64,000 nt of DNA from Escherichia coli. GTDB lineage: Bacteria; Pseudomonadota; Gammaproteobacteria; Enterobacterales; Enterobacteriaceae. Position numbers and translations under genes: made by a program. This document shows positions 1 through 55,184 of this stretch, piece by piece; within the stretch, counting starts at the first letter, position 1; every line of letters starts with the position of its first letter. The notes below the pieces were generated by a model. The model was not told the origin of the DNA. It saw only the letters and a list, made by a program, of their open reading frames with translations, and did not search any database. The DNA is taken from the NCBI RefSeq assembly GCF_046105845.1, contig NZ_CP151004.1; one strand, given 5' to 3'.

Positions 1-205
1 TGTACACAGATGGTGCAATATGTTTGAAAAGATCGGAGTCTATGGGTTAGTTTTTATAGCAAACGTTGTTCTCAACGGCGCTAAAAAACAGACACATTAA
101 AAATGTGGGTAATTATTTTAAAAGAAAATCATATATTAAATAATAATACGAGATATGTTTTCATATTTAGTGTACTGTATACGGCCATTTATACAGGAAA
201 AGCCT

Positions 206-376
206 ATGTCAGAACGTAAAGACTCAAAATCACGCCGTAATTATCTCGTTAAATGTTCCTGCCCAAACTGCACCCAAGAGTCAGAACACAGTTTTTCAAG
301 AGTACAAAAAGGTGCCCTTTTGATCTGCCCTCATTGCAACAAAGTATTCCAGACAAATCTTAAAGCTGTAGCTTGA
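206..376 (+). CDS. Small Cys-rich prophage protein, YnfN/YmcF-like (cold-shock-associated)
   Basis: ORF 155..376; internal ATG at 206 preceded by AGGAAA; product MSERKDSKSRRNYLVKCSCPNCTQ... with CxxC...CxxC; lies beside cspB as in K-12 prophage cold-shock clusters. Confidence 0.6.
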   Translation: MSERKDSKSRRNYLVKCSCPNCTQESEHSFSRVQKGALLICPHCNKVFQTNLKAVA

Positions 377-435
377 TTGATTTTATTCGTAACAAGTATT
401 TTTTATATTTTAATAACATATTTAAAGCAGATAAT

Positions 436-459
436 AAAAAACCCGCCTGAGCGGGTTTA
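436..459. terminator. GC hairpin (cccgc-ctga-gcggg) flanked by A/T runs; bidirectional intrinsic terminator candidate
   Basis: Stem 442-446/451-455; T-run stronger on minus strand (cspB side). Confidence 0.5.
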
Positions 460-739
460 ATATTGTGGTACTTTTTGTGGGAGTCATCCACTTACGCACT
501 TTGTTTTGCTATGCCAGCAGTTAGCTTCTGCTGTAAAACTATTCATGCAGCAAACCTGCACTTCACCACAATGGTTAGCATACTTTTCCTGATTAAGTTA
601 TTGCCAAATATGCTGGCCATTGTTTCATGTATTGGACCTCCTTACTATTTATTAAAGAGATCCAATATTCACCACTCTGTCTGTATCTCCACTCAGGCAT
701 CAGCCTTCTTCGTTATCGTATACAGACAAACTATGAATT

Positions 740-955
740 TTAATCAGTAATTATGACATTTGCTGCTGCAGGACCTTTAGCACCACTCTCTACAGAGAAG
801 GTAACCTTTTGACCTTCAAATAAGGTTCGAAAATTATCATTCTGAATCGCAGAAAAATGCACAAACACATCTTTACTACCATCAACAGGAGAAATAAAGC
901 CAAAACCTTTATCAGCGTTAAACCATTTTACTAAACCAGTCATTTTATTTGACAT
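740..955 (-). CDS. cspB: Cold shock protein CspB (CspA family)
   Basis: 71 aa [38 protein letters not shown]...; canonical RNP1/RNP2 motifs of the CspA family. Confidence 0.9.
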
Positions 956-1255
956 TCTACATTCCTTAACTTGAGCCTTTCGGCATAAATGGCTTGTATA
1001 ACAGAAACGACTTCGTACTTAATTGGAGAGACTCAAAGAAGGAATAAGTGAATAACACCTGAAATGAGAACTGCTTTAGTAAACTACTTCGTATATCGTC
1101 TGTTCTTCAAACCGACGCAATCATTAACGCATAGTTGAACATATGAAGCAATGTTTATTTTAGACATCCAGCCATCTTCAACCCCATCAAAAAACTATAG
1201 CTTTCTTCAGGAACGTGTGTATAGTGCGCCCAGTTATCAGTATTAAGGAATTTTT

Positions 1256-1468
1256 TTGTCCCGTAAAATGACAGGAATTGTCAAAACCTTTGACGGCAAA
1301 AGCGGCAAGGGTCTTATCACCCCATCCGATGGTCGTATCGATGTCCAGCTTCATGTTTCAGCGCTCAATCTCCGCGATGCAGAAGAAATTACCACCGGAT
1401 TACGCGTGGAATTTTGCCGGATAAATGGTCTGCGTGGCCCTTCAGCTGCCAATGTTTACCTTTCATGA
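1256..1468 (+). CDS. cspF: CspF/CspH-like cold shock domain protein
   Basis: 70 aa [26 protein letters not shown]...; TTG start with AAGGAA RBS; divergent from cspB as the cspB-cspF pair in K-12 Qin. Confidence 0.8.
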
Positions 1469-1755
1469 GCTATATTAAAGCTTTAATTTCAGGCCCCATC
1501 GAATCAAACATGGAGAGTTTTCATGAATAACCCCGTCTGTCTTGATGACTGGTTGATTGGCTTTAAAAGCTTATGCTGTACTTTGACCGTAATAGCTCTG
1601 CTAATAATGTAATATGCAGACTCATTGTATCTAGGGACATAGTACTGGAAGAAAACATTTTAAACATCAGGCAAAGTCACCCGATAAATAATAAGTAAAC
1701 AAACATGAATCCCGGAATGAGATTCAACATCTCTATTACCCTATTTAAAGCACAA

Positions 1756-1780
1756 AAACCCGCTCATCAGCGGGTTTTCT
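1756..1780 (+). terminator. Intrinsic terminator hairpin (cccgct-catc-agcggg + ttttct)
   Basis: Perfect 6-bp GC stem followed by T-rich tract. Confidence 0.5.
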
Positions 1781-1883
1781 ACTTTTTCTTAACGTCGGGT
1801 ATATAAAGCCCATCGTTGAAAAAATTTTATCCATATTTTTTGAAAAATGCAAGCATTACGTCGCCATCTTCGGCGAAAATCAT

Positions 1884-2636
1884 TTATCTCGTCACTTTTC
1901 TTAATTGCACCTCAGCATATGCTTCTTCCTGCCAGCACTTTGTAACCAGTTTATCAATGACATCTGCATATCCTTTGTACCACTGATAATCAGTCAGGTC
2001 TGGTACCAGCTTCTGGACATGACACCGCGCCAGTGTCGTTGGTAAACGACTAAACCGGTTTCCATTGCAACGCCCACAAATCTTATAAACAGGCGCGCCA
2101 TGAAGCCGGGTCCTTTTTTCATCCAGGACAATACCTTTACCCTTACACCCTCTGCACGCTGTGCTGACTTCTCCCTTACCATGACAATGCTGACATAGTT
2201 CCTTCACCCACTCTTCCTTGATAACAGACTCCCCGCTTCTGGAGTATTTCACCACTTCGCGCAATACATTATGAAATCCAGTACCAGCACAAGGCTCACA
2301 GCGAGCCTTACTTGCCGCAGACCTGGAATAATCAGCAAAGGCAAAACTCACAAGGTAAGGGATGATCTGTAACCGGATTTCTTCACTCAATTTGTTCAAT
2401 GTCGGGTTATCCAGTGCCATCGCGTAATTGAGCAGACCTTCAATCGCAAACTGAGGATCCTGAACGCCAGCTTTTGCCAGGAATAAGGCAAACCCAAGCG
2501 GTGCTTTCGACTGCACCATCCCCTGCGCAGCCATCACATCCGTAATCGTTAAACCACCTGAGCCTGTCGCCGGTGCGGCATCACTCAATTTTGGAGATTT
2601 TGGGGAGTAATATTTTGGTAAGGCTTCAAGGTTCAT
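1884..2636 (-). CDS. Phage late-gene antiterminator Q (QuuQ-like)
   Basis: 250 aa from internal ATG (MNLEALPKYYSPKSPKLSD...); Cys-rich zinc-binding region CxxC...CxxC; position downstream of replication/nin-like genes. Confidence 0.85.
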   Translation of the reverse strand: MNLEALPKYYSPKSPKLSDAAPATGSGGLTITDVMAAQGMVQSKAPLGFALFLAKAGVQDPQFAIEGLLNYAMALDNPTLNKLSEEIRLQIIPYLVSFAFADYSRSAASKARCEPCAGTGFHNVLREVVKYSRSGESVIKEEWVKELCQHCHGKGEVSTACRGCKGKGIVLDEKRTRLHGAPVYKICGRCNGNRFSRLPTTLARCHVQKLVPDLTDYQWYKGYADVIDKLVTKCWQEEAYAEVQLRKVTR

Positions 2637-2649
2637 GCTCGTTCTCCAC

Positions 2650-3645
2650 TTACGCCAGTACGCCAATTGCCAGCGCACGATCGATAAAACGAAATATCAG
2701 CTCCAGTTGGGAGCCATACTTCTCTTCAAATGTCACGGTATCCGCATGCAGCTCGTCGTGATGCTTTCTGCACAAAGGCAACACAAAGAGATCATGCGCT
2801 TTTGTACCCATTCCACCCTGACCGTGGCCTATCAGGTGGTGGGGATCATCAGCTGGCTTTCCACAACATGCGCACGGCTGCGTCTTAACCCAGCGCGTGT
2901 ACTTTTCATTAACCCAGCGGCGACGTTTGGGGCGTAACATAAAAGACTCCGGCGACTCCGGATCCACTTTCAGCGCCAGCACCTTTTTCGCTTTATCCTG
3001 GATGATGCTGGTGGCAGGAACCGAAGGCACAAGGTCACTTTCCCGGGTGACAGATGGCACAACAGGCTTCGGTAATCTCAGTGCCTTACGGGCTGCACTT
3101 TCCGGTAAGGCATCCGCCAAATCATTACGAACCAGCCACCAGCACAGTTCCGGCATTGTCACAACGTGACTGTCATCAAAACCGAGATCCCGACGCACGA
3201 CAGACAACACCCAGCGGGCACAGTTATCCGTTGCCATTGATTCCAGCCGTTCCGTGAACTGGTCACGCAGCTGGTTATCGCAGTGCCAGCACAGACGAAT
3301 TGCTCCCGGAGCGTGCCGCATTGTGGTCATGTTCTCGCTGTGCCAGTCGGAATGAGGCCACTGACAGCCCTTTTCACGAAGTAACCAGCTTTCAAGACAT
3401 TCCACGCCACCAGCACGACGGATCACTGCCTCATTGCGGAACACGGCCCGAACGGCAGGATCATCCGCCAGCGGTTGTGATGCCGCCGGAACGGCACCAC
3501 TGGCGAAAGATGAATAACGTTCCGGCTCAGGCTCCAGCAGGACACGCCCCTGCATAAACAGGGGCATCAGCTCTGAACCTGGCCTGAACAATACAATCCC
3601 CATACGCGGGGCAATTTCAGGGGTCAGTAGTGCTCTCACGGTCAC
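2650..3645 (-). CDS. Prophage protein with HNH-like motif (YdfU/DUF968-like)
   Basis: 331 aa; C-terminal CACCGKPADDPHHLIGHGQGG...HDLFVLPLCRKHHDELH resembles HNH nuclease signature. Confidence 0.7.
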   Translation of the reverse strand: MTVRALLTPEIAPRMGIVLFRPGSELMPLFMQGRVLLEPEPERYSSFASGAVPAASQPLADDPAVRAVFRNEAVIRRAGGVECLESWLLREKGCQWPHSDWHSENMTTMRHAPGAIRLCWHCDNQLRDQFTERLESMATDNCARWVLSVVRRDLGFDDSHVVTMPELCWWLVRNDLADALPESAARKALRLPKPVVPSVTRESDLVPSVPATSIIQDKAKKVLALKVDPESPESFMLRPKRRRWVNEKYTRWVKTQPCACCGKPADDPHHLIGHGQGGMGTKAHDLFVLPLCRKHHDELHADTVTFEEKYGSQLELIFRFIDRALAIGVLA

Positions 3646-3646
3646 C

Positions 3647-4444
3647 TCAATGAACGGTATCGAGCAGCTTTAACAGCTCAGGGAATCGGGATTCGAAGAA
3701 ATGCGGCTGCGTCTCGCGCGGATTTGCAGGACTGGTGATGTTCTTGCCGAACATGCAGCCTTTCGCCGTCAGCGACCAGAATTTTTTGATGTTGTTAATC
3801 GCGGTACGGCTGTATCGTTCGCGTTGTTCAACGATCCCCAGCTTCACCATCTGGTGATATGCCTGATTAGCCGTCAGGCGGATACCATACTGCCTCAGCA
3901 GTGCACTCAGAGACAGCGTGGGGCGACTTGAGCCATCGTGTGCATCAGCAGGAGCATCAATGGCATAGCGCGGTGCCAGATTCGGTAAGCCAACAGCCTC
4001 CTGGAGTTTCTGGCAGGCACCAAGCACTGAAGAGTTAGACAGGTTTAATTCCCGGCGCATAAAGTCCAGCAGAATCACACCAGCCTGCATCTTGTCAGCA
4101 GCCTGTCCGGATAATTTTTCCGGTGCGCTGGTTACCATGTCGAAAGTACGGATCACCTTCAGATGGAATGACGGGCTGATCCACATTGCATAGGCATACA
4201 CCAGTTCTTTGCAGACATACGTCCCCTGGTTATTTCCGCCACGAATAACGTTAACTGGCTCTATATTGACCGAGTTGCAAATCTGCAACTCGCTTATTAA
4301 ACGCTCAGTTTGCTCATTGCGGAGCCAGAATGCGGGCTTATGCTTATCCAGAGAACCAGCAGCCCTGTGCAGATCGTTCAGGCTGTAACGCCCATAAGCA
4401 TCACGACGAACTTCAATACCATCAATAACCATCAGATTATTCAT
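3647..4444 (-). CDS. KilA-N domain-containing prophage protein
   Basis: 265 aa; N-terminal VIDGIEVRRDAYGRYSLNDLHRAAG typical of KilA-N/APSES-type DNA-binding domain. Confidence 0.7.
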   Translation of the reverse strand: MNNLMVIDGIEVRRDAYGRYSLNDLHRAAGSLDKHKPAFWLRNEQTERLISELQICNSVNIEPVNVIRGGNNQGTYVCKELVYAYAMWISPSFHLKVIRTFDMVTSAPEKLSGQAADKMQAGVILLDFMRRELNLSNSSVLGACQKLQEAVGLPNLAPRYAIDAPADAHDGSSRPTLSLSALLRQYGIRLTANQAYHQMVKLGIVEQRERYSRTAINNIKKFWSLTAKGCMFGKNITSPANPRETQPHFFESRFPELLKLLDTVH

Positions 4445-4463
4445 ACTTCGTTTCTCCTCTTAA

Positions 4464-4853
4464 TCAGGCGGCTGCACCCGCCGTTTTCTCGTACTTACTG
4501 ATAGTGATCTCGACCTTCCCTTCCGGGATAACCGGTCCCCACTCCACCAGCATTCTTTTCACCTGACTGTCGTCTTCCCACACACCCGCGTGGGTCAGGG
4601 CGTCAAACAGCGCCTTGTTATAGTTGTCCAGATCGCGGATCCGGTTATCCGGAGGAAACAACACGATCTCCACTGAAGCAGGTGCCGACGTTGGTTTTGG
4701 CAGACGACGTAACTGCTCAAATATTGCTGCACACGCCGCGCTCTGGAATTTGCGCCCCGCCGCGCTTATCAGGCTCTTACCAGCAAACGCCCCTTTGTTG
4801 GGGTGTCGCCAGTACGTGTTCACGCTGGGCGGGAAAGGCAGGATCAGCTTCAT
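4464..4853 (-). CDS. rusA: RusA-family Holliday junction resolvase
   Basis: 129 aa; RusA-like motifs (RDLDNYNKALFDALT...); typical lambdoid nin-region location. Confidence 0.85.
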   Translation of the reverse strand: MKLILPFPPSVNTYWRHPNKGAFAGKSLISAAGRKFQSAACAAIFEQLRRLPKPTSAPASVEIVLFPPDNRIRDLDNYNKALFDALTHAGVWEDDSQVKRMLVEWGPVIPEGKVEITISKYEKTAGAAA

Positions 4854-5209
4854 ACTTTCAGGCCCCTCTCATGTAACCAGTGGGCTGCACGCAGTCTGGC
4901 GTTTTCCTCACCGGCAAGCAGTGCGCGGATAATCCCGGCTGCCTCGCTGTCGTCGTCCTTCACTGTGGTATGAAGCGTGATACCCCGGGCCACGCCACGC
5001 TTTATCGTGATGACGCCTTTTTTCTCCAGTGCGCGAAGATGCTCCACCGCTGCATTCACCGAACGGTATCCCAGCATGGCTGCCACCTCCTGATTGGTTG
5101 GCGGGAAACCACGTTCTTTCTGATAAGAAATCAGCATATCCAGCACCTGCTGCTGGCATTGAGTTAACGTCGTCATTAAGCCCACACGTAATTCCCTGAC
5201 AGATACCAC
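4850..5209 (-). CDS. LexA N-terminal-domain-like DNA-binding protein (no peptidase domain)
   Basis: 119 aa; LTQCQQQVLDMLISYQKERGFPPTNQEVAAMLGYRSVNAAVEHLRALEKKGVITI closely resembles the LexA winged-helix DNA-binding domain. Confidence 0.6.
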   Translation of the reverse strand: MVSVRELRVGLMTTLTQCQQQVLDMLISYQKERGFPPTNQEVAAMLGYRSVNAAVEHLRALEKKGVITIKRGVARGITLHTTVKDDDSEAAGIIRALLAGEENARLRAAHWLHERGLKV

Positions 5210-5664
5210 TCATCACCCGATACAGCGCGCTTGCTGCTTTTCCGTAAGCACCGCTCACGGCGCGCCAGAAAATTGTTTCGTTCTGACTGGGAGTGGCTTT
5301 CACGGAATGCCGCCATCCACACGGTTGCAGCACGACGGTATAAGCCCCTGGACTCCAGTTCTTCAGCCTGGCGGGTCAGGCACAAAATTACCCGGGGATC
5401 GTTAGTGCCGACATAGAAATTGCGCACAGGTCTGGTTTCACGAACTGGTTGTGGTTCCGGCTCCTGCGCTCTCTCAGTCAGGCGCGGGAAATGTCTGCGT
5501 GTATTTCCTTCACAACGGTGAGCCACACGCCCACTCTGACGTAACTTGCTTGCTGACTGCAGAACGCGCTGCCGTGAGTAACCTGCAAAAGCATCTGCAA
5601 TGTCTCCGGAAGTACACCCCGGATGGGCTTCAATGAATTTCTGAACTTCATTCAAAAGACTCAT
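5176..5664 (-). CDS. PerC/Pch-family-like transcriptional regulator
   Basis: 162 aa; C-terminal LESRGLYRRAATVWMAAF matches the conserved PerC-family RRAA..W motif (from memory). Confidence 0.5.
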   Translation of the reverse strand: MSLLNEVQKFIEAHPGCTSGDIADAFAGYSRQRVLQSASKLRQSGRVAHRCEGNTRRHFPRLTERAQEPEPQPVRETRPVRNFYVGTNDPRVILCLTRQAEELESRGLYRRAATVWMAAFRESHSQSERNNFLARRERCLRKSSKRAVSGDEWYLSGNYVWA

Positions 5665-5666
5665 GA

Positions 5667-6485
5667 TTACCCCCTGAATCCTGCCGGGATCTGGCTGTAG
5701 TCCACGTTGTCGTAACTGGCTTTGAAGTACGGGTCCTCGCGTCTGGCTGCAGATACCGCAGGAACTTCCCAGGATTCTTCGAAATGACGATCCGGACCAA
5801 AGAACGTGACAGCCTGTTTCACAAATTGTGTGCCGCTGTTACCCATCGCAGATACCCAGCCCGCGTAGCGTTTCACACCTTCCAGCATGGTTTCGGGTTT
5901 TACCCCCTCATTCAAACGGGCTTTCCAGGCTTTGAAGGCTGCAGATTTTGAATTGCCACCAGCACGTTTGGGGTATGCCAGCCATGCCTGCTCAAACTCC
6001 GGAGAGTATTCCGGTCGGTTTGAACGAACTCGCACAGACTCATCAGCAGATGCACCAACAGCTATTGGTTCATTGACTGGTTCTTTGACTGGTTCAAAAG
6101 AGTGACTGGTTCTGGGTGAATCTCCTGCACCACCCCCTGGTGCAACTCCTGCACTACCTGGTGAATTTGCTGCACCAGATAGTGAATTATTTGCACTACC
6201 CCCTAGTGAATCTCCTGCACCATCAAGATGAAGGAGATAGATATTACTTGAGTTACCTTTTTCACCTTTCCGGGTGACTTTTTTTACCAGCCCGGAATCA
6301 CAAAGGGCCGCAATATGATTCATCACAGAACGTTTGCTAATCTCGCACTGGTCAGCAATATGCTGGTAGCTGGGCCAGCACTCACCCTGATCGCTGGCAT
6401 TATCAGCCAGCTTGATCAGAACCAGTTTTCGCAATGGATTACCCACTCGAATTTTCATCGCTTTAACCATCAGCTCCATACTCAT
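5667..6485 (-). CDS. Phage replication initiation protein (O-like) with DnaT-like C-terminus
   Basis: ORF 5667..6524 (TTG); likely ATG start at 6485 overlapping upstream stop; N-terminal winged-helix, Gly/Ser/Pro-rich linker encoded by iterons, C-terminal ...YSQIPAGFRG like host DnaT. Confidence 0.7.
   Translation of the reverse strand: MSMELMVKAMKIRVGNPLRKLVLIKLADNASDQGECWPSYQHIADQCEISKRSVMNHIAALCDSGLVKKVTRKGEKGNSSNIYLLHLDGAGDSLGGSANNSLSGAANSPGSAGVAPGGGAGDSPRTSHSFEPVKEPVNEPIAVGASADESVRVRSNRPEYSPEFEQAWLAYPKRAGGNSKSAAFKAWKARLNEGVKPETMLEGVKRYAGWVSAMGNSGTQFVKQAVTFFGPDRHFEESWEVPAVSAARREDPYFKASYDNVDYSQIPAGFRG
6074..6222. repeat. Iteron array (putative prophage replication origin) inside replication gene
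   Basis: Three copies of tgactggttc (6074, 6086, 6103) then five ~18-bp repeats related to ggtgaatctcctgcacca starting at 6115, 6139, 6160, 6181, 6205 (21-24 bp period). Confidence 0.6.
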
Positions 6486-6718
6486 GCTGCACCTCCGAGA
6501 TGCTTCATGTTTTTTCCGGAGCAAAAGGCTATAAGCGGCATACTGATGCGGTAATTACGGCCCAGCGGTTCACAAATCACCTTCTGACATTCACGGTCAA
6601 CCAGGCTAACACGTAGAACATGCCCTGCAGGCGTGGTGTACCACTGCCCAACTGTAGGAATTGATGTTTTTTTACGCTGAAGCAAACGGCAAATATTGAG
6701 GATCAACGGATTAAGCAT
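6482..6718 (-). CDS. Hypothetical prophage protein
   Basis: 78-aa ORF translationally coupled (ATGA overlap) to the replication gene. Confidence 0.45.
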   Translation of the reverse strand: MLNPLILNICRLLQRKKTSIPTVGQWYTTPAGHVLRVSLVDRECQKVICEPLGRNYRISMPLIAFCSGKNMKHLGGAA

Positions 6719-7547
6719 GACGATGCCCTCCGCTGATATTCAGGAGACGGTGAATATGAAAATTAGCCTTATCCGCCAGACGAATACGTTCAGCCTGCAA
6801 GTTAAGAAGGGTTTCTACCAAAACCTGATGCGCCTGCGGATCCGAAAGAGTTACCTTGCGCAGAGCACGTAGTGCAGTTGTTACATAACTGAGTTTATGT
6901 AAGTCTTCATCATTCAGACGAGTGAGGGCTGGGACAGTAGCCATGATGGCAGCCTCCGATAACAGTGAATTACCTTCACCACCGGAAACGCCAATTTCGC
7001 TGGTGGTGAACTGAACGGGGTTGGCGTAACCGGCGTTATCGGAAACCGGCGCACCTTTCGGTGCCCCCGTCCAGCCCACCATAATTTGGGTGTGCACAGA
7101 CACAGACGATAAAAAAGACGCTGGCGCGTCATATATCGCCGATAACATTTCCAGGACGCCAATCCCGTCACCCGCTTTATAAGGTGCCTGAACAGTGTAA
7201 CGTCCCGGAATGGCAGAATCAATGTGCTGGTGGTCCTTCACACTCAACAAAATCACGCCTGAATTTCCACAAAGGACTAAAGCACTCATGCGGGTAGTCT
7301 TTGCGAAGATAGATAACGCGCTGTGTTTCTGGTTCCCAACGAATAACATGGACATAAAGCCCTCTTCCGTCACGAAACCAGCGGTTAAGTTCCCGCACAA
7401 CTCGCCCCCCACAGTCAGGTAAAGTTCTCTGTGGTTACTTACAGCCAGGTGATTTGGTAATCTGCATTCATGCCGTAACAACAGGTGTTCAGCGACACTG
7501 ACCACCAGCTGTTGCGACAAACGGTTATTTGCCGTTAAACTGTTCAT
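6711..7547 (-). CDS. Hypothetical prophage early-region protein
   Basis: 278-aa ORF in the cro-side early operon; no motif recognised. Confidence 0.55.
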   Translation of the reverse strand: MNSLTANNRLSQQLVVSVAEHLLLRHECRLPNHLAVSNHRELYLTVGGELCGNLTAGFVTEEGFMSMLFVGNQKHSALSIFAKTTRMSALVLCGNSGVILLSVKDHQHIDSAIPGRYTVQAPYKAGDGIGVLEMLSAIYDAPASFLSSVSVHTQIMVGWTGAPKGAPVSDNAGYANPVQFTTSEIGVSGGEGNSLLSEAAIMATVPALTRLNDEDLHKLSYVTTALRALRKVTLSDPQAHQVLVETLLNLQAERIRLADKANFHIHRLLNISGGHRHA

Positions 7548-8107
7548 GCGTTAGTTTCTCCACAGACACAAAACGCCACGACGCCCGGAGCTGCACACTC
7601 GCGGGCGTCACTCTTTTCTGGAGCGCAAAAGATTTTGTAGACCAGTGCTGCATGCTCTTGGAGCTTCGAAATTGACAGATACAACTCATCATTAATTGCT
7701 GTCTGCTCGTGTGGCTCCACGACCCCATCTTCGATTGCCGAACGAATCTGCTTTGAGTAATTCCCGATCTGTTCGATGACTTCCAGCAGGCGCTGGTTTA
7801 TATCGGCGTTCTCTACTTCCTCAATTTCAGGAAGCGATACGAACACCCCACCAGCAGACTGTGCGACAGCATCCGCAATGTAGTGAGTGTCAGCCGCGCG
7901 CTGTAAAACCATTGCCCATCCCAGCGGGAAAATCTGATCGCCATCGGCACGAAGGCGGTTAAATAATGCGTTCTCTGTTACATCCAGCCAGTCAGCTGCT
8001 TCAGCGTAACCACCCGGCAACGCTGCGATAGTTTTTCTGACAGCTTTCACGTACCACTCAGGCTGTTTTTCTACTTTCCAGTGATACTTACCCACGGTTA
8101 GCCTCAT
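7544..8107 (-). CDS. Hypothetical prophage regulatory protein (cII position; possibly YdaT-like)
   Basis: 187-aa ORF immediately downstream of cro-like gene. Confidence 0.5.
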   Translation of the reverse strand: MRLTVGKYHWKVEKQPEWYVKAVRKTIAALPGGYAEAADWLDVTENALFNRLRADGDQIFPLGWAMVLQRAADTHYIADAVAQSAGGVFVSLPEIEEVENADINQRLLEVIEQIGNYSKQIRSAIEDGVVEPHEQTAINDELYLSISKLQEHAALVYKIFCAPEKSDARECAAPGVVAFCVCGETNA

Positions 8108-8138
8108 CGTTCTGTGGTTAAAAATTGAAGGTGTTCTG

Positions 8139-8339
8139 TTAATCTTTCGGATAGATATCCGGTCTTAAGTCAGATTTCGTAATTGCACCTGACGTGCATT
8201 GCTCAAGTTTTTTCGCCAGCACAAAACTGGCTTTTTTATAACCATTGAAAACCAGCCGTAAGTAGCCAGGTGTTGAGCCAACTTTTCCGGCCAACTCGCC
8301 CTGCTGTTCTTTGGTTAAAGAGTCCCAATACGCTTTCAT
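8139..8339 (-). CDS. Cro-like HTH regulator
   Basis: ORF 8139..8444; probable start at internal ATG 8339 (MKAYWDSLTKEQQGELAGKVGSTPGYL...); divergent from repressor gene. Confidence 0.6.
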   Translation of the reverse strand: MKAYWDSLTKEQQGELAGKVGSTPGYLRLVFNGYKKASFVLAKKLEQCTSGAITKSDLRPDIYPKD

Positions 8340-8394
8340 ACAATATGTACCTCCAGTATACATATTACATGATTGAAATGAACCTTCAAGATAC

Positions 8395-8413
8395 TTGTAC
8401 CTTATCGGTACAA
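8395..8413. promoter_or_regulatory. Putative operator palindrome in cro/cI intergenic region
   Basis: TTGTACC-ttatc-GGTACAA perfect 7-bp inverted repeat between divergent cro-like and cI-like genes. Confidence 0.35.
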
Positions 8414-8429
8414 AGGTTTTAATTTCGTT

Positions 8430-9104
8430 ATGAAAACAATCCATGACATCCGGCGGTCTAACGCCAGAAAACTGAGAGATGGTGTTGGCGGAAATTCATC
8501 CTTTGCCACCATGATTGATCGCGAGCCAACCCAAACCAGCAGGTTTATGGGGGATGGCGCTACTAAAAATATCGGTGACAGCATGGCACGGCACATCGAA
8601 AAATGTTTCGACCTGCCTGTCGGATGGCTTGATCAAGAACACCAGACAACGAACATCACAAAAAAACCTGATGTTTCAATCACTAACAAACAAATAACGT
8701 TAGTCCCTGTCATATCATGGGTACAGGCCGGAGCATGGAAAGAAGTTGGCTATTCTGAGGTTGATTTGAGCACAGCAGAAACGTATCCCTGCCCTGTACC
8801 CTGTGGCGAAATGACTTATATCTTGCGGGTGATTGGTGATTCAATGATTGATGAGTACCGCCCTGGAGACATGATTTTTGTTGATCCCGAAGTCCCTGCC
8901 TGCCACGGTGACGACGTTATTGCATTGATGCACGATACAGGCGAAACCACCTTCAAGCGATTGATAGAAGATGGAACACAGCGTTATCTCAAAGCATTAA
9001 ACCCAAACTGGCCTGAGCCTTACATTAAGATTAACGGTAATTGCTCTATAATTGGTACAGTGATTTTCTCGGGAAAACCAAGAAGATACACAATAAAGGC
9101 CTAA
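8430..9104 (+). CDS. CI-like prophage repressor (HTH + S24 LexA-type peptidase domain)
   Basis: 224 aa; C-terminal LRVIGDSMIDEYRPGDMIFVDPE ... FKRL resembles S24 Ser/Lys autoprotease. Confidence 0.85.
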   Translation: MKTIHDIRRSNARKLRDGVGGNSSFATMIDREPTQTSRFMGDGATKNIGDSMARHIEKCFDLPVGWLDQEHQTTNITKKPDVSITNKQITLVPVISWVQAGAWKEVGYSEVDLSTAETYPCPVPCGEMTYILRVIGDSMIDEYRPGDMIFVDPEVPACHGDDVIALMHDTGETTFKRLIEDGTQRYLKALNPNWPEPYIKINGNCSIIGTVIFSGKPRRYTIKA

Positions 9105-9118
9105 TCAATATTTATGAA

Positions 9119-9139
9119 CCTGCTTCGGCAGGTTTTTTT
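9119..9139 (+). terminator. Rho-independent terminator after repressor gene
   Basis: cctgc-ttcg-gcagg followed by TTTTTTT. Confidence 0.7.
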
Positions 9140-9772
9140 ATACTTGACAATGTACCTATGAGATACATAATGTATCCAAAAGAAACATGAGGCAGGCAAG
9201 ATTCAAACAAAATTTGGTTGTAACACGGCGTATGGCACATGCGTCGTTAGCGGTCTGGGGACGTTAAAGGGGACAATCCACTCCTTGCTAGGGCAAACAA
9301 ACCAGGTAGCCGGAATGTGCAAGTCAATGATGATGCTGATAAGACGCCTAACCAGCGTGGCGATCCGGTTTGACGCCTGGGAAGAGACCAGGGTGCAACG
9401 ATGAGGGCATTTATGGAGCCGCGACAAAGTGTGGTGCCGTAACTGGCTAAGTGCTCTCAGCGTTGTGGTCATCCGCGAAATGGCGCGGCGGTAAGTATGG
9501 CTGGGTTACTCTTTCCCCGTTGAGGACACCGGATTGTCAGGTTGACCATACGCCTGAGTGACAACCCCACCACAACAGCCACTGCTTTGGCGGTACCAGT
9601 TTGTACACTTGCTTCCGGCTGGTACCGCTCTTTTTACAAAACAGAGAAGAGCATCACCGGACGACGGGCTCATAACCCAATCCATCCGGGCGGCTGCCAC
9701 CGCAGGTGTTCTTCTCTGTTTTGTGGAGAAACCAACCGACCTTGCAGGGTCGATATGATGAGGAGCAGCAAA

Positions 9773-10135
9773 ATGGCTAGCGAACGCAGTACTGATGTGC
9801 AGGCATTTATCGGGGAGCTGGACGGCGGCGTATTTGAAACCAAAATCGGCGCAGTTCTCAGTGAAGTCGCTTCCGGTGTGATGAACACGAAAACCAAAGG
9901 TAAGGTCTCACTCAACCTGGAAATCGAACCATTTGATGAGAACCGTGTGAAAATCAAACACAAACTCTCATATGTTCGCCCGACTAACCGCGGGAAAATT
10001 TCCGAAGAAGACACCACCGAAACGCCGATGTATGTCAATCGCGGTGGTCGCCTGACTATTCTGCAGGAAGACCAGGGACAATTACTGACTCTTGCCGGTG
10101 AACCTGACGGAAAACTACGCGCAGCAGGTCATTAA
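9773..10135 (+). CDS. Hypothetical prophage protein (YfdP-like)
   Basis: 120 aa from ATG 9773 with GAGGAG RBS (MASERSTDVQAFIGELDGG...). Confidence 0.55.
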   Translation: MASERSTDVQAFIGELDGGVFETKIGAVLSEVASGVMNTKTKGKVSLNLEIEPFDENRVKIKHKLSYVRPTNRGKISEEDTTETPMYVNRGGRLTILQEDQGQLLTLAGEPDGKLRAAGH

Positions 10136-10200
10136 TATCGTTCTTAATTAACTGATTATTTATCTCATCACTGAATATCTTTATATAGTGAGGACTTATT

Positions 10201-11025
10201 ATGTCTCAGAACTTAGACGCAACCGCAATTAATCAAATCCATGCCCTTATTTCTGCTCAGGGTGTTAATGAAATTATCAGTAAGATTGGTGCCGATGCTG
10301 TGGTATTGCCTGAGAATTTCCGCATTCATGATCTGGAAAAATTTAATTTAAATCGCTTCCGTTTCCGTGGTGCGCTTTCCACTGCCAGCATCGATGACTT
10401 TACCCGTTATTCTAAAGATCTTGCAGATGAAGGCACCCGCTGCTTTATCGATGCTGATAATATGCGTGCCGTCAGTGTACTTAACCTGGGTACTATTGAT
10501 GAACCAGGTCACGCAGATAACACCGCCACTCTCAAACTGAAAAAGACAGCACCGTTCTCTGCCCTGTTGTCTGTTAACGGCGAGCGTAACTCCCAGAAGT
10601 CACTGGCAGAATGGATTGAAGACTGGGCCGACTACCTTGTGGGCTTTGATGCTAATGGTGACGCTATTCAGGCAACAAAAGCGGCTGCGGCAGTCCGTAA
10701 AATCACGATTGAAGCAAACCAGACCGCTGATTTTGAAGATAATGACTTCAGCGGCAAACGCTCCCTGATGGAATCTGTCGAAGCGAAGACCAAAGACATT
10801 ATGCCAGTGGCATTTGAAATTAAATGCGTTCCGTTTGAAGGTCTGAAAGAACGTCCGTTTAAATTACGCCTCAGCATTATCACTGGCGATCGTCCTGTAC
10901 TGGTTCTGCGCATTATTCAGCTGGAAGCGGTGCAGGAAGATATGGCTAACGAATTTCGTGATCTGCTTGTTGAGAAATTCAAAGACAGCAAAGTAGAAAC
11001 CTTTATTGGTACTTTCACCGCCTGA
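10201..11025 (+). CDS. yfdQ: YfdQ-like prophage protein
   Basis: 274 aa [24 protein letters not shown]...; matches my recollection of K-12 CPS-53 YfdQ. Confidence 0.75.
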
Positions 11026-11152
11026 TTTCATTACTGCAAATGCCCCTGCGGGGGCATTTATGGAAACGTAATTAACTCAATAATCACCGGATGGTGAGGG
11101 CTTCCTTTTACCCAAACTCAGCGCGGTGCAGCGCATATACGTGGAGAACAAA

Positions 11153-11689
11153 ATGTCATTTATTAAAACTTTTTCCGGGAAGCATTTTTATTATGACAAG
11201 ATAAATAAAGACGACATCGTGATTAACGATATCGCGGTTTCCCTTTCAAATATCTGCCGCTTTGCCGGTCATCTTTCTCACTTCTACAGTGTCGCCCAAC
11301 ATGCGGTGCTTTGCAGCCAGCTGGTGCCGCAGGAATTTGCTTTTGAAGCGTTAATGCATGATGCAACAGAAGCGTATTGCCAGGATATTCCCGCTCCACT
11401 GAAACGCCTTCTTCCTGACTATAAACGGATGGAAGAAAAAATTGACGCCGTAATCCGTGAGAAATACGGGTTACCCCCAGTTATGAGTACGCCCGTGAAA
11501 TATGCCGATCTTATCATGCTGGCAACCGAACGCCGCGATCTCGGGCTTGATGATGGCTCTTTCTGGCCTGTACTGGAAGGCATCCCGGCAACAGAGATGT
11601 TCAACGTGATTCCACTGGCACCTAGCCATGCCTACGGGATGTTTATGGAACGTTTTAACGAGTTATCGGAGTTACGCAAATGCGCATGA
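11153..11689 (+). CDS. yfdR: YfdR-like HD-domain phosphohydrolase
   Basis: 178 aa from internal ATG (MSFIKTFSGKHFYYD...); HD motif region ...HFYSVAQHAVLCSQL... Confidence 0.75.
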   Translation: MSFIKTFSGKHFYYDKINKDDIVINDIAVSLSNICRFAGHLSHFYSVAQHAVLCSQLVPQEFAFEALMHDATEAYCQDIPAPLKRLLPDYKRMEEKIDAVIREKYGLPPVMSTPVKYADLIMLATERRDLGLDDGSFWPVLEGIPATEMFNVIPLAPSHAYGMFMERFNELSELRKCA

Positions 11690-12042
11690 ATGTTTTCGAA
11701 ATGGAAGGGTTTCTTCGCGGTAAATGTGTACCGCGAGATCTGAAAGTGAACGAAACAAATGCTGAGTACCTGGTACGTAAATTCGACGCGCTTGAAGCTA
11801 AATGTGCGGCACTGGAAAACAAAATAATACCAGTGTCAGCTGAACTGCCACCAGCAAATGAAAGTGTTCTGTTATTTGATGCTAACGGAGAAGGCTGGCT
11901 GATTGGCTGGCGTTCTCTCTGGTACACCTGGGGACAAAAAGAAACCGGAGAATGGCAGTGGACATTTCAGGTCGGGGACCTTGAAAACTTCAATATCACT
12001 CACTGGGCAGTAATGCCAAAAGCGCCGGAGGCTGGAGCATAA
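11680..12042 (+). CDS. yfdS: YfdS-like prophage protein
   Basis: 120-aa ORF overlapping yfdR end. Confidence 0.65.
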   Translation: MRMNVFEMEGFLRGKCVPRDLKVNETNAEYLVRKFDALEAKCAALENKIIPVSAELPPANESVLLFDANGEGWLIGWRSLWYTWGQKETGEWQWTFQVGDLENFNITHWAVMPKAPEAGA

Positions 12043-12662
12043 TGACCACATTTACCAATAAAGAACTGATTAAAGAAATCAAAGAACGAATCAGCAGCCT
12101 AGAGGTTCGAGACGATATTGAGCGCCGTGCTTATGAAATTGCTCTGGCATCGCTAGAAGAGGAGCCGGTGGCATGGCTGCATTCAGAAAATGGCTTAGGT
12201 ATTCCGGCAATAACGAGGAGTAAAAACATTGCTGACAGTTGGTTATCAAAGGGCTGGTATGTTCAGCCGCTATATATAGCCAAGCCAGTGCCGGTGGTGC
12301 CAGATGCTCGTCCGTCTTTAAATAATGGCATAGTCGGCTTTGATGAAGGCTGGAACGCCTGCCGCGCCGCCATGCTTAATGGTGCCGAACCTGTAAGCCA
12401 GACTTACAAGTTGAACGAGCTGTCGGGCAACTCTCCGGTAACTCCGGATGGTTGGATAAGCTGTAGTGAGCGAATGCCGAACGATAAACAGTATGTTTGG
12501 TGTTGGGGTAAGTCTTACGGCTGGACTGAGTACGATACCTTCGAAGGGTATTACGATTGTTCGAGAAACAAATGGTGGGCAGTTACTGACAATGGGGAAG
12601 AACCGGCATCGAAAGTAACCCACTGGATGCCGCTACCGGAGCCGCCGCAGGAGGTGAAGTAA
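12042..12662 (+). CDS. YfdT-like prophage protein
   Basis: 206-aa ORF, contiguous with yfdS-like gene. Confidence 0.65.
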   Translation: MTTFTNKELIKEIKERISSLEVRDDIERRAYEIALASLEEEPVAWLHSENGLGIPAITRSKNIADSWLSKGWYVQPLYIAKPVPVVPDARPSLNNGIVGFDEGWNACRAAMLNGAEPVSQTYKLNELSGNSPVTPDGWISCSERMPNDKQYVWCWGKSYGWTEYDTFEGYYDCSRNKWWAVTDNGEEPASKVTHWMPLPEPPQEVK

Positions 12663-12856
12663 TGAACAACTTAATGACAACTAAACAAGTCGCCGATTTC
12701 TGTGGTGTTTCAGTATCGACAGTTCTTCGCTGGAACAGCGTAAACAGGAGAACTGGCCAGAAATACAGGCCTGACTTTCCAGATCCTGATATTAAATCCT
12801 GCCCAAATAAATGGGCATCACACAAGATTTACAGATTTGCGGGAGTGATTGATTAA
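12662..12856 (+). CDS. AlpA/excisionase-family small DNA-binding protein
   Basis: 64 aa; TKQVADFCGVSVSTVLRW helix-turn-helix; located next to integrase module. Confidence 0.7.
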   Translation: MNNLMTTKQVADFCGVSVSTVLRWNSVNRRTGQKYRPDFPDPDIKSCPNKWASHKIYRFAGVID

Positions 12857-13138
12857 TATGTATTAGCTTAGATGTGAGCTGACACATCTATGATTAGATG
12901 CCAAACCAAATCTGAGCGTCCACTCTTTAACAAGAGCGGACGTTACCAATGACCATATGACATGAATCGATAAGATCAAAACATTATCGCCAAGAAATGT
13001 CATACCATTGATACAAATAAAATTGATTACCCCCTTACTCTTGTTGAAAAGTTAGTCGTAGAGTACCTATCGCAATGTAATCAGCTTTAATCATCTGAAA
13101 ATTACTCCTTAAAAATTAGCTTTTATATACTGAACAAA

Positions 13139-13858
13139 TTAAATCTCTGTTTCTTTTCCTGTTCGGCTCAACCAATACTCCATTGTTTGAGTATGAATCT
13201 TTTCAGCGTATATTTTATCAATTAATTTATCTCGTTTTTCTTTAATGACTTTACGCAGTGAATCATATAACATAAAAAAACGTTCATCATCTTCCTCATT
13301 ATTACCATAATTTATTTGATTGAGTTCTGAAAAAATATGATAGCACCTTTTTTTCTTGGTCCCCGGCAATATTAAAACCAAGCCACATTGATCATATTCA
13401 AATTCACCTTTATGGGCAGCAAAGTTATGTCTAACATTCATAATAGAATCATGTAAATCTCTGTATTTTTCTGGCACATGCTTTCTCTGCAATGTGAATC
13501 GACGCCCTTTCGCCTCTGTAAAACACTTACCGTAAGTAACAACTTTTGATATAAATAAAGACTTTAATATTAGATTCTTTTCTAAATCAGGATAAATAAA
13601 GTGTTGTTCTCTATTAATGTTATTACAAATGTTTTTTATTATATTCTCCCAACCAATAACATTCCGAAGATCTTTATCCAGCAACTGTAAGGCCACATAT
13701 TGTTCTACAAAGCGGCCTTTTAAAGGTATTCGTGGTAATATTACACCTTTCTGCTTATAAACTCTTTCTATCGTATTATCTGGATATTGGATCTTCCTTA
13801 TTTCTATTCCGTCTTCTTCTGATACCCTTACTAATGGTTCATTTTTTAACTTTGACAT
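13139..13858 (-). CDS. Hypothetical AT-rich prophage cargo (moron) protein
   Basis: 239-aa ORF in low-GC segment between excisionase and integrase; no confident motif. Confidence 0.7.
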   Translation of the reverse strand: MSKLKNEPLVRVSEEDGIEIRKIQYPDNTIERVYKQKGVILPRIPLKGRFVEQYVALQLLDKDLRNVIGWENIIKNICNNINREQHFIYPDLEKNLILKSLFISKVVTYGKCFTEAKGRRFTLQRKHVPEKYRDLHDSIMNVRHNFAAHKGEFEYDQCGLVLILPGTKKKRCYHIFSELNQINYGNNEEDDERFFMLYDSLRKVIKEKRDKLIDKIYAEKIHTQTMEYWLSRTGKETEI

Positions 13859-14143
13859 GTTAACCCTCTTAAATAAAAAACTAACTTTATCCAGATAGTG
13901 TCCGTTAAGAAGTTTTCGTTACAACTAAGTTTCTAGGTAAATCATGAATCAACCTATAGTATCAAAAACATTTGGTGGTAAACATCTGCATTTATCAAAT
14001 AGCAGGAGCGATTTAGGGGCATAGGGATAGTGATGATATCTATACCCGTGCCCTCTTATGTCAACACAATGGCGTAAACTTAACGCTCACATCTCGCTCA
14101 AAGTGTGCTAGGAGATTTGGTTATGTTCAGGTGATACAAACCG

Positions 14144-15367
14144 TCAGTTTGAATCAGAGATAGTACAATTAACAATCGATTCAACCCTCTTCCACCATGC
14201 CAGGTAAGCTTTACGCTGTTCTTCTAGATAATCGCTCTTATCATAAACTTGCCATACCCCTGGCAGCTTATGACCAAGCATAATTTCTGCGATATGAGGC
14301 GCAGTAAGATCAGAAAAATTTGTTCGTGCTGTCCGTCTCAAGTCATGAAGAGACCAATGAGGGAATTGATATCCTAAACGCCGCCACGCGTACTGCATTA
14401 AATTGTAAGGCAGCGACTGTAATGATGTCCTACCGACTGGCTCCCTGCTTCCTTCCTTAGTAAAAAGCATATCGGAACCGTTGTTCATAGAGATAACGTA
14501 TTTTATAAGCTCTTCAACCGGTTCAATAATGGGCCGCTTTAGCGGTTCGCCTGTTATGTCCCCTGTCTTATGTCGTTCAGGTGGTACAGTCCATACCTTA
14601 TTTATGAAATCAAAATCACCCACCCTAGCAGTAATTAGCTCCGAACTACGGCAACCAAAATGCAGTAATAGTTTAATGAAGGCCCGGTATTTGGGAACCA
14701 TTCTAGAGCCATCGATCGCAGCATAAAGAATTTTAATTTCATCGTGTGTCAGAAACCGTTTCTTCTGACCTTTACGGATATCCATATCTTTACCCGTGAT
14801 ATCCGACAGCGGGCGAGTTTCAATAAGCTTTCTCTTATACGCCCAGACATGGGCCTGCTTTGCGTTAATTAGCAATCGGTCTGCTATTGCTGGAGTCTTA
14901 GTGCTAAGAGGCTCCAGGACTTCTAACCAATCATGCAATGTAGCTGCATCGTGAGGGATATTCCCGATTTTAGAGAACAGGTGCAGCTCAAACGAGCGGA
15001 GTATCTGTTCAGAACCCTTTTTATTTTTTACACAATATGCTTCATACCAGGCACGGATCACAGACTCTACCGTCATGGCTTCAGTAGCTTTTCGTTTTTC
15101 AGCCTGCTTGACCAATCGTGGATTACGGTTTGACTCGAGTTCACCACGGAGACGGATAACTTCTTCTCTGGCCTCTTTTAATCCAGTTGCCGGGTAAGTT
15201 CCGATATCAAGACGCTCACCTTTCCCTGCCCATTGATAACGATATTGAAACACTACGCGACCTTTCGGTGATACTCTGACAGACAGACCATCACGATCGG
15301 ATTTAACCAAAACCTTATCACGTTCCTTTCCAACGACTGAACGCAACCACGCATCAGACAGCGCCAT
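14144..15367 (-). CDS. Tyrosine-type phage integrase
   Basis: 407 aa; C-terminal catalytic region ...HDLRRTARTNFSDL...GHKLPGVWQVY... typical of tyrosine recombinases. Confidence 0.9.
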   Translation of the reverse strand: MALSDAWLRSVVGKERDKVLVKSDRDGLSVRVSPKGRVVFQYRYQWAGKGERLDIGTYPATGLKEAREEVIRLRGELESNRNPRLVKQAEKRKATEAMTVESVIRAWYEAYCVKNKKGSEQILRSFELHLFSKIGNIPHDAATLHDWLEVLEPLSTKTPAIADRLLINAKQAHVWAYKRKLIETRPLSDITGKDMDIRKGQKKRFLTHDEIKILYAAIDGSRMVPKYRAFIKLLLHFGCRSSELITARVGDFDFINKVWTVPPERHKTGDITGEPLKRPIIEPVEELIKYVISMNNGSDMLFTKEGSREPVGRTSLQSLPYNLMQYAWRRLGYQFPHWSLHDLRRTARTNFSDLTAPHIAEIMLGHKLPGVWQVYDKSDYLEEQRKAYLAWWKRVESIVNCTISDSN

Positions 15368-15587
15368 TACTCACCTTGTACAAATCGCAAAACACCTCTG
15401 CTGCTTTGTACATTATGTACAAGCATATGTACAGATTTTTGATGAAAGCAACCTGATCGATTTAAAGTTACATGAAAGAATTTTCAATTAAAGAAGCCAC
15501 ATAACTATATGTATTTAAATGAGTTATATAACCAGACCTCAATTAACTGAAAGGATTTTGAAAGAGTAAAAGAGCTTTAATTTGGGA

Positions 15588-15662
15588 TTAATTATTGGGG
15601 TGAGAAATAATGGCAAAAGTGCGGCGCTTCGCCACCTCTTGCAAATAAGGAGACAACGTCAT
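15588..15662 (-). pseudogene. prfC: prfC 5' fragment (first 22 codons) truncated at prophage junction
   Basis: Minus-strand translation [22 protein letters not shown] then NN-stop; matches RF3 N-terminus, diverges just before the GTPase P-loop. Confidence 0.75.
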
Positions 15663-15752
15663 AATTCTTTCTTCTTGAGTAAGCGGCATCGCGCCGCGCT
15701 TGTTGAAAACGAAAAATTGCGGCTATTTTACCCATCAACGGGGGGGAGGCAA

Positions 15753-16430
15753 TCAGTGTTTACACAGGAGCTGCTCCAGTTCGTGCAACGAAGAAACTGT
15801 CCAGGTGGGCGCGATGCCTTCTGGTTGCTCGCGATTGTGCGCATTCAGCCAGCAGGTCGCAAGCCCGGCGTTGATGCCACCGAGAATATCGGACTCGGCA
15901 GTGTCGCCAACCATCAGCACGCGTGAACGGTCAGGATTGCCCGCCTGTTCCAGCGCATAATCGAAAATTTTCTTATTCGGTTTGGCAACGCCAACTTCTT
16001 CGGAAATCACCAGCAAATCGAAATAATCACGCAGGCCCGTGCGTTCCAGACGCACTTGCTGCAAAGCGCTAAAGCCGTTGGTGATGATGCCAATTTTAGC
16101 ATTGCCACGAATGGCGTTAAGCAGAGAAACCGCGCCCGGCAGCGGCGTACAGATTTCCGCCATCGCATTAATAAAGGCTTCGTTGAGTTTACCCGGCTCG
16201 ACGTTCAGCCGTTCGGCCCAGCTCTCAAACCGCCCGTGCTGAAGCTGTAATGAAGTGATCGCGCCGTTTTGATAATCCACCCACAGTGGCTTGTTAACGG
16301 CCTGATAGTCCTGAAAATCTTCAGCGGTAAAGGTGACGCTGTAATCAAGAAACATCCGCTGCAGGCCGGTGAATGAGTCAAAGGTAAACAGCGTTTCATC
16401 GGCATCAAAGAAAATCCAGTCCCACTTCAT
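15753..16430 (-). CDS. yjjG: Pyrimidine 5'-nucleotidase YjjG (HAD family)
   Basis: 225 aa [18 protein letters not shown]...; HAD motif DxDxT. Confidence 0.95.
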
Positions 16431-16444
16431 TATTCCACCTTGTC

Positions 16445-16891
16445 TTACATACTGATTGGCAACGCCATGATGATGGCGTCTTCGCGACCGTCCGTGGTGG
16501 GGTAGTAATTGCGGCGAATCGTCGCCTCGTTAAAGCCTAAACTTTCGTACAGTGCAATGGCGGCAGCGTTTGAGGCACGGACTTCCAGCCATAGCGTCGC
16601 CACGCCGCGTTTTTCCAGTTCGTCGATCAGATGTTCCAGCAGCGCCCTTCCCAATCCCTGACGCTGATAGTCAGGATCGACCGCAATATTGAACAATGTA
16701 GCTTCATCCAGCACCACTTGCGTAATCGCAAACGCCGCCATTTTGCCGTTTTGCGTTAACTGAAAGTTGAGATAACGCTCGCCCTGGTTGCTGGCAAAGG
16801 TTTTTTCACTCCACGGAAAGGCGTGGGCGCGTTGTTCAATGTGGTAAGCCGCTGGTAAATCAGTCGTTTCGAGGGAAGAAATCGTGTTCAT
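16445..16891 (-). CDS. rimI: Ribosomal protein S18 alanine N-acetyltransferase
   Basis: 148 aa GNAT acetyltransferase; conserved synteny holD-rimI-yjjG. Confidence 0.95.
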
Positions 16892-18606: not shown

Positions 18607-18693
18607 GCGAAGGTGGCGGAATTGGTAGACGCGCTAGCTTCAGGTGTTAGTGTCCTTACGGACGTGGGGGTTCAAGTCCCCCCCCTCGCACCA
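18607..18693 (+). tRNA. leuQ: tRNA-Leu (CAG)
   Basis: 87 nt GCGAAGGTGGCGGAATTGGTAGAC...CTTCAGGTG...CCTCGCACCA; anticodon loop CTTCAGGT (CAG); encoded CCA. Confidence 0.95.
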
Positions 18694-18721
18694 AAAACCA
18701 CGTTGATATTGCTCGCACTGG

Positions 18722-18808
18722 GCGAAGGTGGCGGAATTGGTAGACGCGCTAGCTTCAGGTGTTAGTGTTCTTACGGACGTGGGGGTTCAAGTCCCCCCCC
18801 TCGCACCA
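18722..18808 (+). tRNA. leuP: tRNA-Leu (CAG), one variable-arm substitution vs flanking copies
   Basis: 87 nt; identical to copy 1 except C-to-T at 18769. Confidence 0.95.
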
Positions 18809-18842
18809 AACGAGGCGATATCAAAAAAAGTAAGATGACTGT

Positions 18843-18929
18843 GCGAAGGTGGCGGAATTGGTAGACGCGCTAGCTTCAGGTGTTAGTGTCCTTACGGACG
18901 TGGGGGTTCAAGTCCCCCCCCTCGCACCA
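18843..18929 (+). tRNA. leuV: tRNA-Leu (CAG)
   Basis: 87 nt; identical to copy 1. Confidence 0.95.
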
Positions 18930-42457: not shown

Positions 42458-42658
42458 CACGTATACACTTCATCCTTCAGGCTACCTCTGCGTTGGCTGC
42501 GCTCGTTCACCCCGGTCACGTACTTCTGTACGCTCCCGGGGATTCACTCACTTGCCGCCTTGATGCAACCTGAATGATTTTGTGTATATTACCCTCGGCA
42601 ATTTCTTTTTCTGCGGCCCCAAACAATGCGGGCCGCTGCTTAATTTACGGAACTCACA

Positions 42659-46184: not shown

Positions 46185-46345
46185 CAGCGTTTACTCCCGG
46201 TTAACCACCGGGAGCCTTCCACTGACTCAATAGAAACTTTCCCCCTCAGTAAATATTTACCTGCCTGATTGTGCAGTAAAAATCTATTGTTTCAGTACGT
46301 TGCGAAAGCGATAATAGAGGCTTAGCAATGAGGAAGGCACATCTT

Positions 46346-54800: not shown

Positions 54801-55172
54801 GGTTACCACCACTGAATGTTTCTTTTCCAGCAAAGCTTTCCAACTGGCTAACTGGTGTGTAAAAGGCTTCCAGTCAGCACCAAATCGGTACCGGCCATTA
54901 CTCTGATCATCCAGTGAATCAACCACTGCTTTGCTCAACAATGCGTTGCCTTCCGTCAGACTGCGCATCGTGTGGTTTGACTCCTTCCAGCCAAACATTT
55001 GCTGGAATACCGGAGAAGCAAGGAATGAGCCCGGTTTCCCACAATCAGCCCCCATTTGTTGCGCGAGATGTTCACGCAGCTGCGGGTTGGTTACGCCCAT
55101 GATACTGAGCGTTGCTTCAGTTGAACGAGACAACGATTGTTCAATAAGTGACGAAAAATAGCGTGTAGTCAT
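48828..55172 (-). CDS. Large SF2 helicase with C-terminal Cys clusters (DUF1998-like); candidate DruE of a Druantia type III-like system
   Basis: 2114 aa; Walker [16 protein letters not shown] (aa ~125-135), DEAH box IVLDEAHTY (~262-269), motif III ATSAT, motif [10 protein letters not shown]; Cys pairs CHKCG...CSNSACG and CLSCG. Confidence 0.85.
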
Positions 55173-55184
55173 CCTTATTCCTTT

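Follow-up and report, generated by a model that had tools for sequence, protein, structure and literature searches.

A cdtI/2H10-type lambdoid prophage within the 5' end of Escherichia coli prfC, with probable rebuilding of the gene as a full-length hybrid

The stretch at positions 15588–15752 of the window, by which we mean the whole 64,000 nucleotides of Escherichia coli DNA analysed here (contig NZ_CP151004.1), is where a lambdoid prophage (cdtI/2H10 type) meets the chromosome on its integrase side, a junction named attL in the convention used for SXT. We consider it very probable that a phage of this type was inserted here by site-specific recombination, with prfC, the gene for RF3 (peptide chain release factor 3), rebuilt as a full-length hybrid rather than split. 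The arrangement has already been described (Ogura 2007; Hochhut & Waldor 1999; Smyshlyaev 2021), the phage type, the site and the mechanism are all known, and it is common in E. coli.

On the minus strand past yjjG (Table 1), an ATG at 15662–15660 opens 22 native prfC codons (15662–15597), which are followed by two phage codons (N, N) and a stop, the ORF ending at 15588. In a near-identical genome, this 22-codon remnant is called by RefSeq an incomplete pseudogene without C-terminus. The preliminary description, in which the minus strand past yjjG encodes the RF3 N-terminus and then passes into phage sequence toward the integrase, is correct on this point, with int lying at 15367–14144. The outcome that it had set against itself, an intact prfC continuing below 15597, is not what is found, because the sequence there is phage; and a search of the 64-kb window found no prfC past codon 22. 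Upstream of the remnant, the intergenic region toward yjjG contains a promoter-like TTGCCT-16-TAAAAT at 15752–15725 (−). When the stretch from this site to int was scanned, a terminator-like site was absent, so that readthrough from the native prfC promoter region into int would be possible.

The att core, ATTATTTCTCACCC, 14 nt at 15598–15611 (−), is the longest stretch common to both junctions of the prophage. It had earlier been placed around 15594–15600, a range that takes in just the phage-side edge and has to be replaced, since the core shared by host and phage is 15598–15611. The same 14 bp are annotated in the GenBank records of the clonal complex 119 (CC119) Stx phages as a duplication caused by the insertion (one Stx2c record was inspected).

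Table 1. Features at and near the integrase-side junction (positions in the 64-kb window)
Feature	Position	Strand	Basis or remark
Integrase-proximal 15.6 kb of lambdoid prophage	1..15597	.	99.9% identity, window 1–16500 vs NZ_OY754416.1; continues past left edge
Excisionase (xis)	12662..12856	+	phrog_1553, E = 6e-36; annotated excisionase in phage 2H10
239-aa phage protein between xis and int, no function assigned	13139..13858	-	phrog_8440, E = 2e-144
Tyrosine integrase (int), 407 aa	14144..15367	-	phrog_1 integrase, E = 5e-74
Integrase-side attP arm, 230 nt, AT-rich	15368..15597	-	2 mismatches vs attP arm of free phage 2H10
Orphaned native prfC 5' end, 22 native and 2 phage codons and stop	15588..15662	-	Translation; RefSeq pseudogene fragment
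att core ATTATTTCTCACCC, crossover region	15598..15611	-	Codons I18-I19-S20-H21 and first two bases of P22
Native yjjG-prfC intergenic region, 90 nt, with native prfC ribosome-binding site and promoter-like site 15752–15725	15663..15752	-	Now faces int
yjjG, chromosomal flank	15753..16430	-	Annotated yjjG, pyrimidine 5'-nucleotidase, in matching genomes

The DNA of the int region, that is int and its arm, is 99.4% identical to phage 2H10 (NC_049950). A three-way alignment of the 2H10 attP with both prophage junctions showed that in the free phage the distal and int arms, with the core between them, form one contiguous attP, and that the junction in the window passes at the core from host attB sequence into attP sequence. 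The contiguous attP of the free phage confirms site-specific (Campbell-type) integration. Moreover, the 2H10 attP holds a small prfC-5'-like coding stretch, which lies upstream of int and is read in its direction. Phages cdtI and Ayreon agree with 2H10 in the prfC-like start, in the core and in the phage sequence that comes after it, and the same attP module is carried in the Stx1a/Stx2c phage records of clonal complex 119. Compared with the 15 listed Stx2c and the first four listed Stx1a phage records, the integrase DNA is ~95% identical. The present prophage resembles the lambdoid prfC phages (cdtI, AB285204, Asakura 2007; 2H10; Ayreon; the Stx1a/Stx2c phages of STEC O103/CC119) in its integrase (95–99% DNA identity) and the 14-nt core and, going by NZ_OY754416.1, also in the prfC 5' mimic that the phage carries and in a dinI-like gene at the distal end. 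The main difference is in the cargo: cdtI has cdtABC beside the dinI-like gene, whereas the near-identical genome NZ_OY754416.1 has there a gene for serine acetyltransferase, a pseudogene fragment and tail-fibre genes, and neither a stx nor a cdt gene is annotated in its prophage. Stx phages at prfC are in routine typing use (PMC10132054), and the change of the RF3 N-terminus by phages of STEC O103 was described by Ogura 2007 (PMC2323221), who left its expression undecided. In the attP of phage Ayreon (extract L036, about 2015), a host-type GCC stands directly 5' of the core, where the other phages have GCA, and this base brings the stretch identical to attB up to 20 nt; it may be the footprint of an earlier cycle of integration and excision in K-12.

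The occurrence of the arrangement was surveyed in 5426 complete E. coli genomes, the query for the empty site being a reconstruction from the yjjG side of the window and prfC of the reference genome. The int-side junction is present in 698 genomes, the hybrid junction in 691 and the empty site in 4717, and the int-side junction and the empty site together leave ~11 genomes unaccounted for. The matches to the empty site are one uninterrupted yjjG-prfC stretch with identity up to 99.7%. Because the site is uninterrupted in that many genomes, the remnant beside yjjG is not a chance resemblance to prfC; together with the contiguous attP of free phage 2H10, this upholds the earlier claim that the prophage is inserted inside prfC's 5' end.

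Several complete E. coli chromosomes match the first 16,500 positions of the window at 99.9% identity, and only two mismatches separate NZ_OY754416.1 from the window across the 15.6 kb of prophage that they share. This part holds genes for a Q-like antiterminator, a DUF968 protein, KilA-N and RusA, a cI/cro-like ymfK/ymfT pair, yfdPQR, xis and int, and the annotation of the matching genome lists a Q-like antiterminator, a cI/cro-like pair, terminase, portal, capsid, tail, tail-fibre and lysis genes. The xis gene is convergent with int, not co-oriented with it, and is left unannotated by RefSeq in the near-identical genome. A 206-aa ORF at 12042–12662 (+) is intact in the window, while RefSeq annotates the same DNA of the near-identical genome as two partial pseudogenes, one of them DUF551.

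Since the window is without the rest of prfC, the distal end of the prophage was taken from NZ_OY754416.1, where it lies ~29 kb past the left edge of the window and where the prophage measures ~44.7 kb from the dinI-like gene to int (RefSeq annotation). At this end, a second copy of the core is present, as the preliminary description had suggested looking for, and it is fused to prfC codon 23: 21 phage-borne codons are joined to that codon in frame at the core. The resulting gene encodes 528 aa, is an ordinary prfC from DAGKTT on, adjoins the dinI-like gene in divergent orientation, and is annotated by RefSeq as intact peptide chain release factor 3. Relative to the native protein, only residues 2–8 are changed and the hybrid is one residue shorter; the element itself supplies an in-frame replacement for the 5' coding sequence, as seen in the hybrid ORF of NZ_OY754416.1. 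It had been stated earlier that prfC is split unless the distal end supplies a new 5' end; the split does not stand, while the exception does, in the form of this in-frame hybrid. From the near-identity of the two sequences, we infer that the genome to which the window belongs has the same distal end, and the junction expected there would read ATGACAAGCCTTTTGGCCGCAGAGGTAGCGAAAAGAAGAACCTTTGCA, ATTATTTCTCACCC and GGACGCCGGTAAGACT, the last of these from prfC codon 23 onward.

The events can be pictured as follows. The attP of the phage carries a mimic of the start of prfC, with 21 codons ending in ATTATTTCTCACCC and, ahead of them, a ribosome-binding region and further upstream sequence. Recombination within the core strands the native promoter and 22 codons beside int, as is seen in the window. 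At the other prophage end, which lies outside the window at a distance of ~44.7 kb, the same recombination would join prfC codon 23 in frame to the start brought in by the phage, with a full-length hybrid RF3 as the outcome.

Two other readings concern the nature of the junction and of the element, and both are extremely improbable. Lysogens do have two similar prfC 5' segments, and the 22 codons beside yjjG might on that account be a phage-borne duplicate, with the native end elsewhere, or an artefact of assembly or rearrangement. However, the copy on the yjjG side is the one found in the 4717 prophage-free genomes, by which this reading was rejected, the other copy is the one carried by free phage genomes, and the same junction recurs in 698 independent complete genomes. 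The second reading is that the inserted element is an integrative conjugative element (ICE) of the SXT/R391 type, with which it shares the target codons in prfC and a homologous integrase. The att site of SXT/R391 is ATCATCTCTCACCC(T/G)GA (PMC6541609), and the present core overlaps it codon for codon. SXT-family integrases are reported to be 99% identical among members (PMC2791158), whereas the present integrase has 38–39% protein identity to them along its full length (39% over residues 1–402), far from the near-identity to IntSXT by which membership is recognised; the SXT-type int genes used here were recovered by scanning genome contigs for the published IntSXT primer sequence, and the SXT att sequences were taken from PMC6541609. 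The attP of SXT is ATCATCTCTCACCCTGA, as against ATTATTTCTCACCC in the present prophage. Furthermore, SXT/R391 elements (Hochhut & Waldor 1999) are conjugative, measure ~100 kb and are under SetR/SetCD control, but the element here is a lambdoid phage: a conjugative backbone (tra, setR/setCD) was not found among the genes annotated in the matching genome, which encode lambdoid head, tail, lysis and regulatory functions and none of which is annotated as conjugation. The ICE was accordingly rejected on an integrase just 39% identical to the SXT family and an int region 99.4% identical to a sequenced free phage. None of the best 120 of 1091 integrase homologues carries an SXT label, and tblastn of a plasmid collection gave nothing beyond mislabelled chromosomes and Pantoea megaplasmids. 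Homologues of 50–61% identity in Shewanella, Pseudomonas and Serratia each adjoin a truncated prfC ending in ...AIISHP, and ...AIISHPDA is the end of the native prfC remnant next to SXT-type int genes in 14 species. The cdtI phage integrase and IntSXT fall into one cluster of prfC-targeting integrases (Smyshlyaev 2021, PMC8138268).

A more serious question is whether the hybrid gene is made, since an intact hybrid ORF alone is no proof of expression. If the phage arm were without an adequate promoter or ribosome-binding site, RF3 would not be made and prfC would be inactivated in spite of the hybrid ORF. The prophage does separate the native promoter and ribosome-binding site from the body of prfC, a sigma-70 scan gave no strong match beside the hybrid start, and prfC is listed among the prophage-disrupted genes by Bobay et al. 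2013 (PMC3603311). In the consensus scan and by manual inspection, no strong sigma-70 promoter was found near the hybrid start on the prfC strand, and the sole candidate there, TCTACA-16-TATTAT, matches at 9 of 12 positions, lies ~180 nt upstream of the start and overlaps a LexA box of the promoter of the divergent dinI-like gene. Against inactivation stand several features of the sequence. The context of the phage start, ACAATTATGAC, resembles the native AGAATTATGAC, the reading frame is preserved exactly across the hybrid junction, and prfC is annotated as intact, not as a pseudogene, in the sampled lysogens that were checked. Over the nine codons 9–17, the phage and host copies differ at eight nucleotides, all eight of them synonymous, and none of 200,000 random variants with eight substitutions kept the peptide, which argues for selection acting on the encoded peptide, not for mere similarity of DNA, and for a hybrid that would be translated and important. 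In addition, the replaced residues 2–8 fall in a naturally variable stretch of gammaproteobacterial RF3, for which the N-termini of Serratia, Yersinia, Pseudomonas and Shewanella provide examples including MSGNKVEVDKRRTF, and the invariant block of 16 residues leading into the GTPase P-loop is retained in the hybrid. For other elements of similar design, SXT at the same site is reported to bring a new promoter with the restored gene, and the genes restored by dusA-targeting elements were expressed in lacZ fusions (PMC8409611). Taking both sides together, we regard inactivation as unlikely, and the evidence argues that the scoring of prfC as disrupted in PMC3603311 is an artefact of the scoring where this phage family is concerned. 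Since only a weak promoter match was found, expression of the rebuilt prfC is what we infer from these features; the phage arm presumably supplies a working promoter, and the hybrid RF3 is presumably active.

A parallel in design is given by the dusA-specific elements (IMEVchUSA3, PMC8409611), which likewise insert at the 5' end of a conserved gene, provide a new promoter, alter the N-terminus and restore the frame. They differ in the target gene and in being mobilisable islands, and for them the expression of the rebuilt gene has been measured. Restoration at the opposite end of a gene is also familiar. Phage 21 and e14 integrate into icd and carry the displaced 3' segment themselves, and the target stays intact. 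In the case of icd, where the 3' end is replaced, the supply of a promoter is unnecessary, but in the case of prfC the 5' end, the ribosome-binding site and the promoter must be phage-derived. Duplication of 3' ends by prophages is mentioned in PMC3603311.

Rebuilding of prfC from phage DNA would also open ways for its regulation. Two LexA boxes are shared with the dinI-like gene, and one of them is overlapped by the promoter candidate toward the hybrid prfC; a 22-nt TGTACA repeat, moreover, closely precedes the phage prfC start as well as int. Binding of Int or LexA there could modulate transcription. That the expression of RF3 in lysogens is under phage or SOS control is a quite improbable proposal, rated a little below inactivation; if it were true, ~13% of sequenced E. 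coli would have the quality control of termination tied to DNA damage or to the state of the prophage. In addition, promoters might be swapped, with int under the promoter of the phage prfC mimic as long as the phage is circular and under the host prfC promoter once it is integrated. At the distal end (about 3800–3850 of extract L001, outside the window), the two LexA boxes (CTGT-N8-ACAG) lie in and just past the dinI-like promoter TTGACA-18-AAAAAT.

The domain set of the integrase is that of the IntSXT/P4-like subgroup (Arm-DNA-bind_3, Phage_int_M and the catalytic domain), and for a protein 97% identical to it the precomputed Pfam matches are PF13356, PF22022 and PF00589; NCBIfam gave generic integrase matches only, below threshold. 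Four TGTACA palindromes start at 15377, 15407, 15416 and 15428 in the int-side arm, out of 11 in the whole window. In a 4.5-kb stretch of 2H10, all eight copies of TGTACA, four per arm, are confined to positions −183 to +229 relative to the core (extract L002, 1346–1763). Since the integrase has an arm-binding domain, these repeats are plausible candidates for arm-type Int-binding sites. A 22-nt direct repeat, TGTACATATG(A/C)TTGTACATAAT, also recurs on the two attP arms, one copy lying a short way upstream of the start codon of the phage prfC mimic and the other likewise upstream of that of int. The TGTACA palindromes and the 22-nt repeats possibly have a regulatory role.

As for the wider meaning of the arrangement, a prophage junction that seems to cut a gene short calls for caution in annotation, as the far end of the element may rebuild that gene. 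One integrase lineage has kept to one target, the codons for I-I-S-H-P, a conserved segment that directly precedes the GTPase P-loop of RF3. It does so in mobile elements as different as lambdoid phages with cdt or stx toxin genes and the SXT/R391 resistance ICEs, and in hosts ranging over Escherichia, Serratia, Pseudomonas and Shewanella. In roughly one in eight E. coli genomes, the altered promoter and N-terminus may change the level or activity of RF3.

Outside the prophage, further loci were seen in the window. Three tandem tRNA-Leu(CAG) genes at 18607–18929 (+) are consistent with the leuV/P/Q array beside rsmC. Two very large adjoining ORFs at 48828–58523 (−) match the defence proteins DruE3 (2114 aa, 2697 bits) and DruH3 (1112 aa, 1829 bits) of Druantia type III. 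Beside them are ORFs at 38945–45615 whose sizes would fit hsdR, hsdM and hsdS, and a pair encoding 465 aa and 358 aa at 46328–48771.
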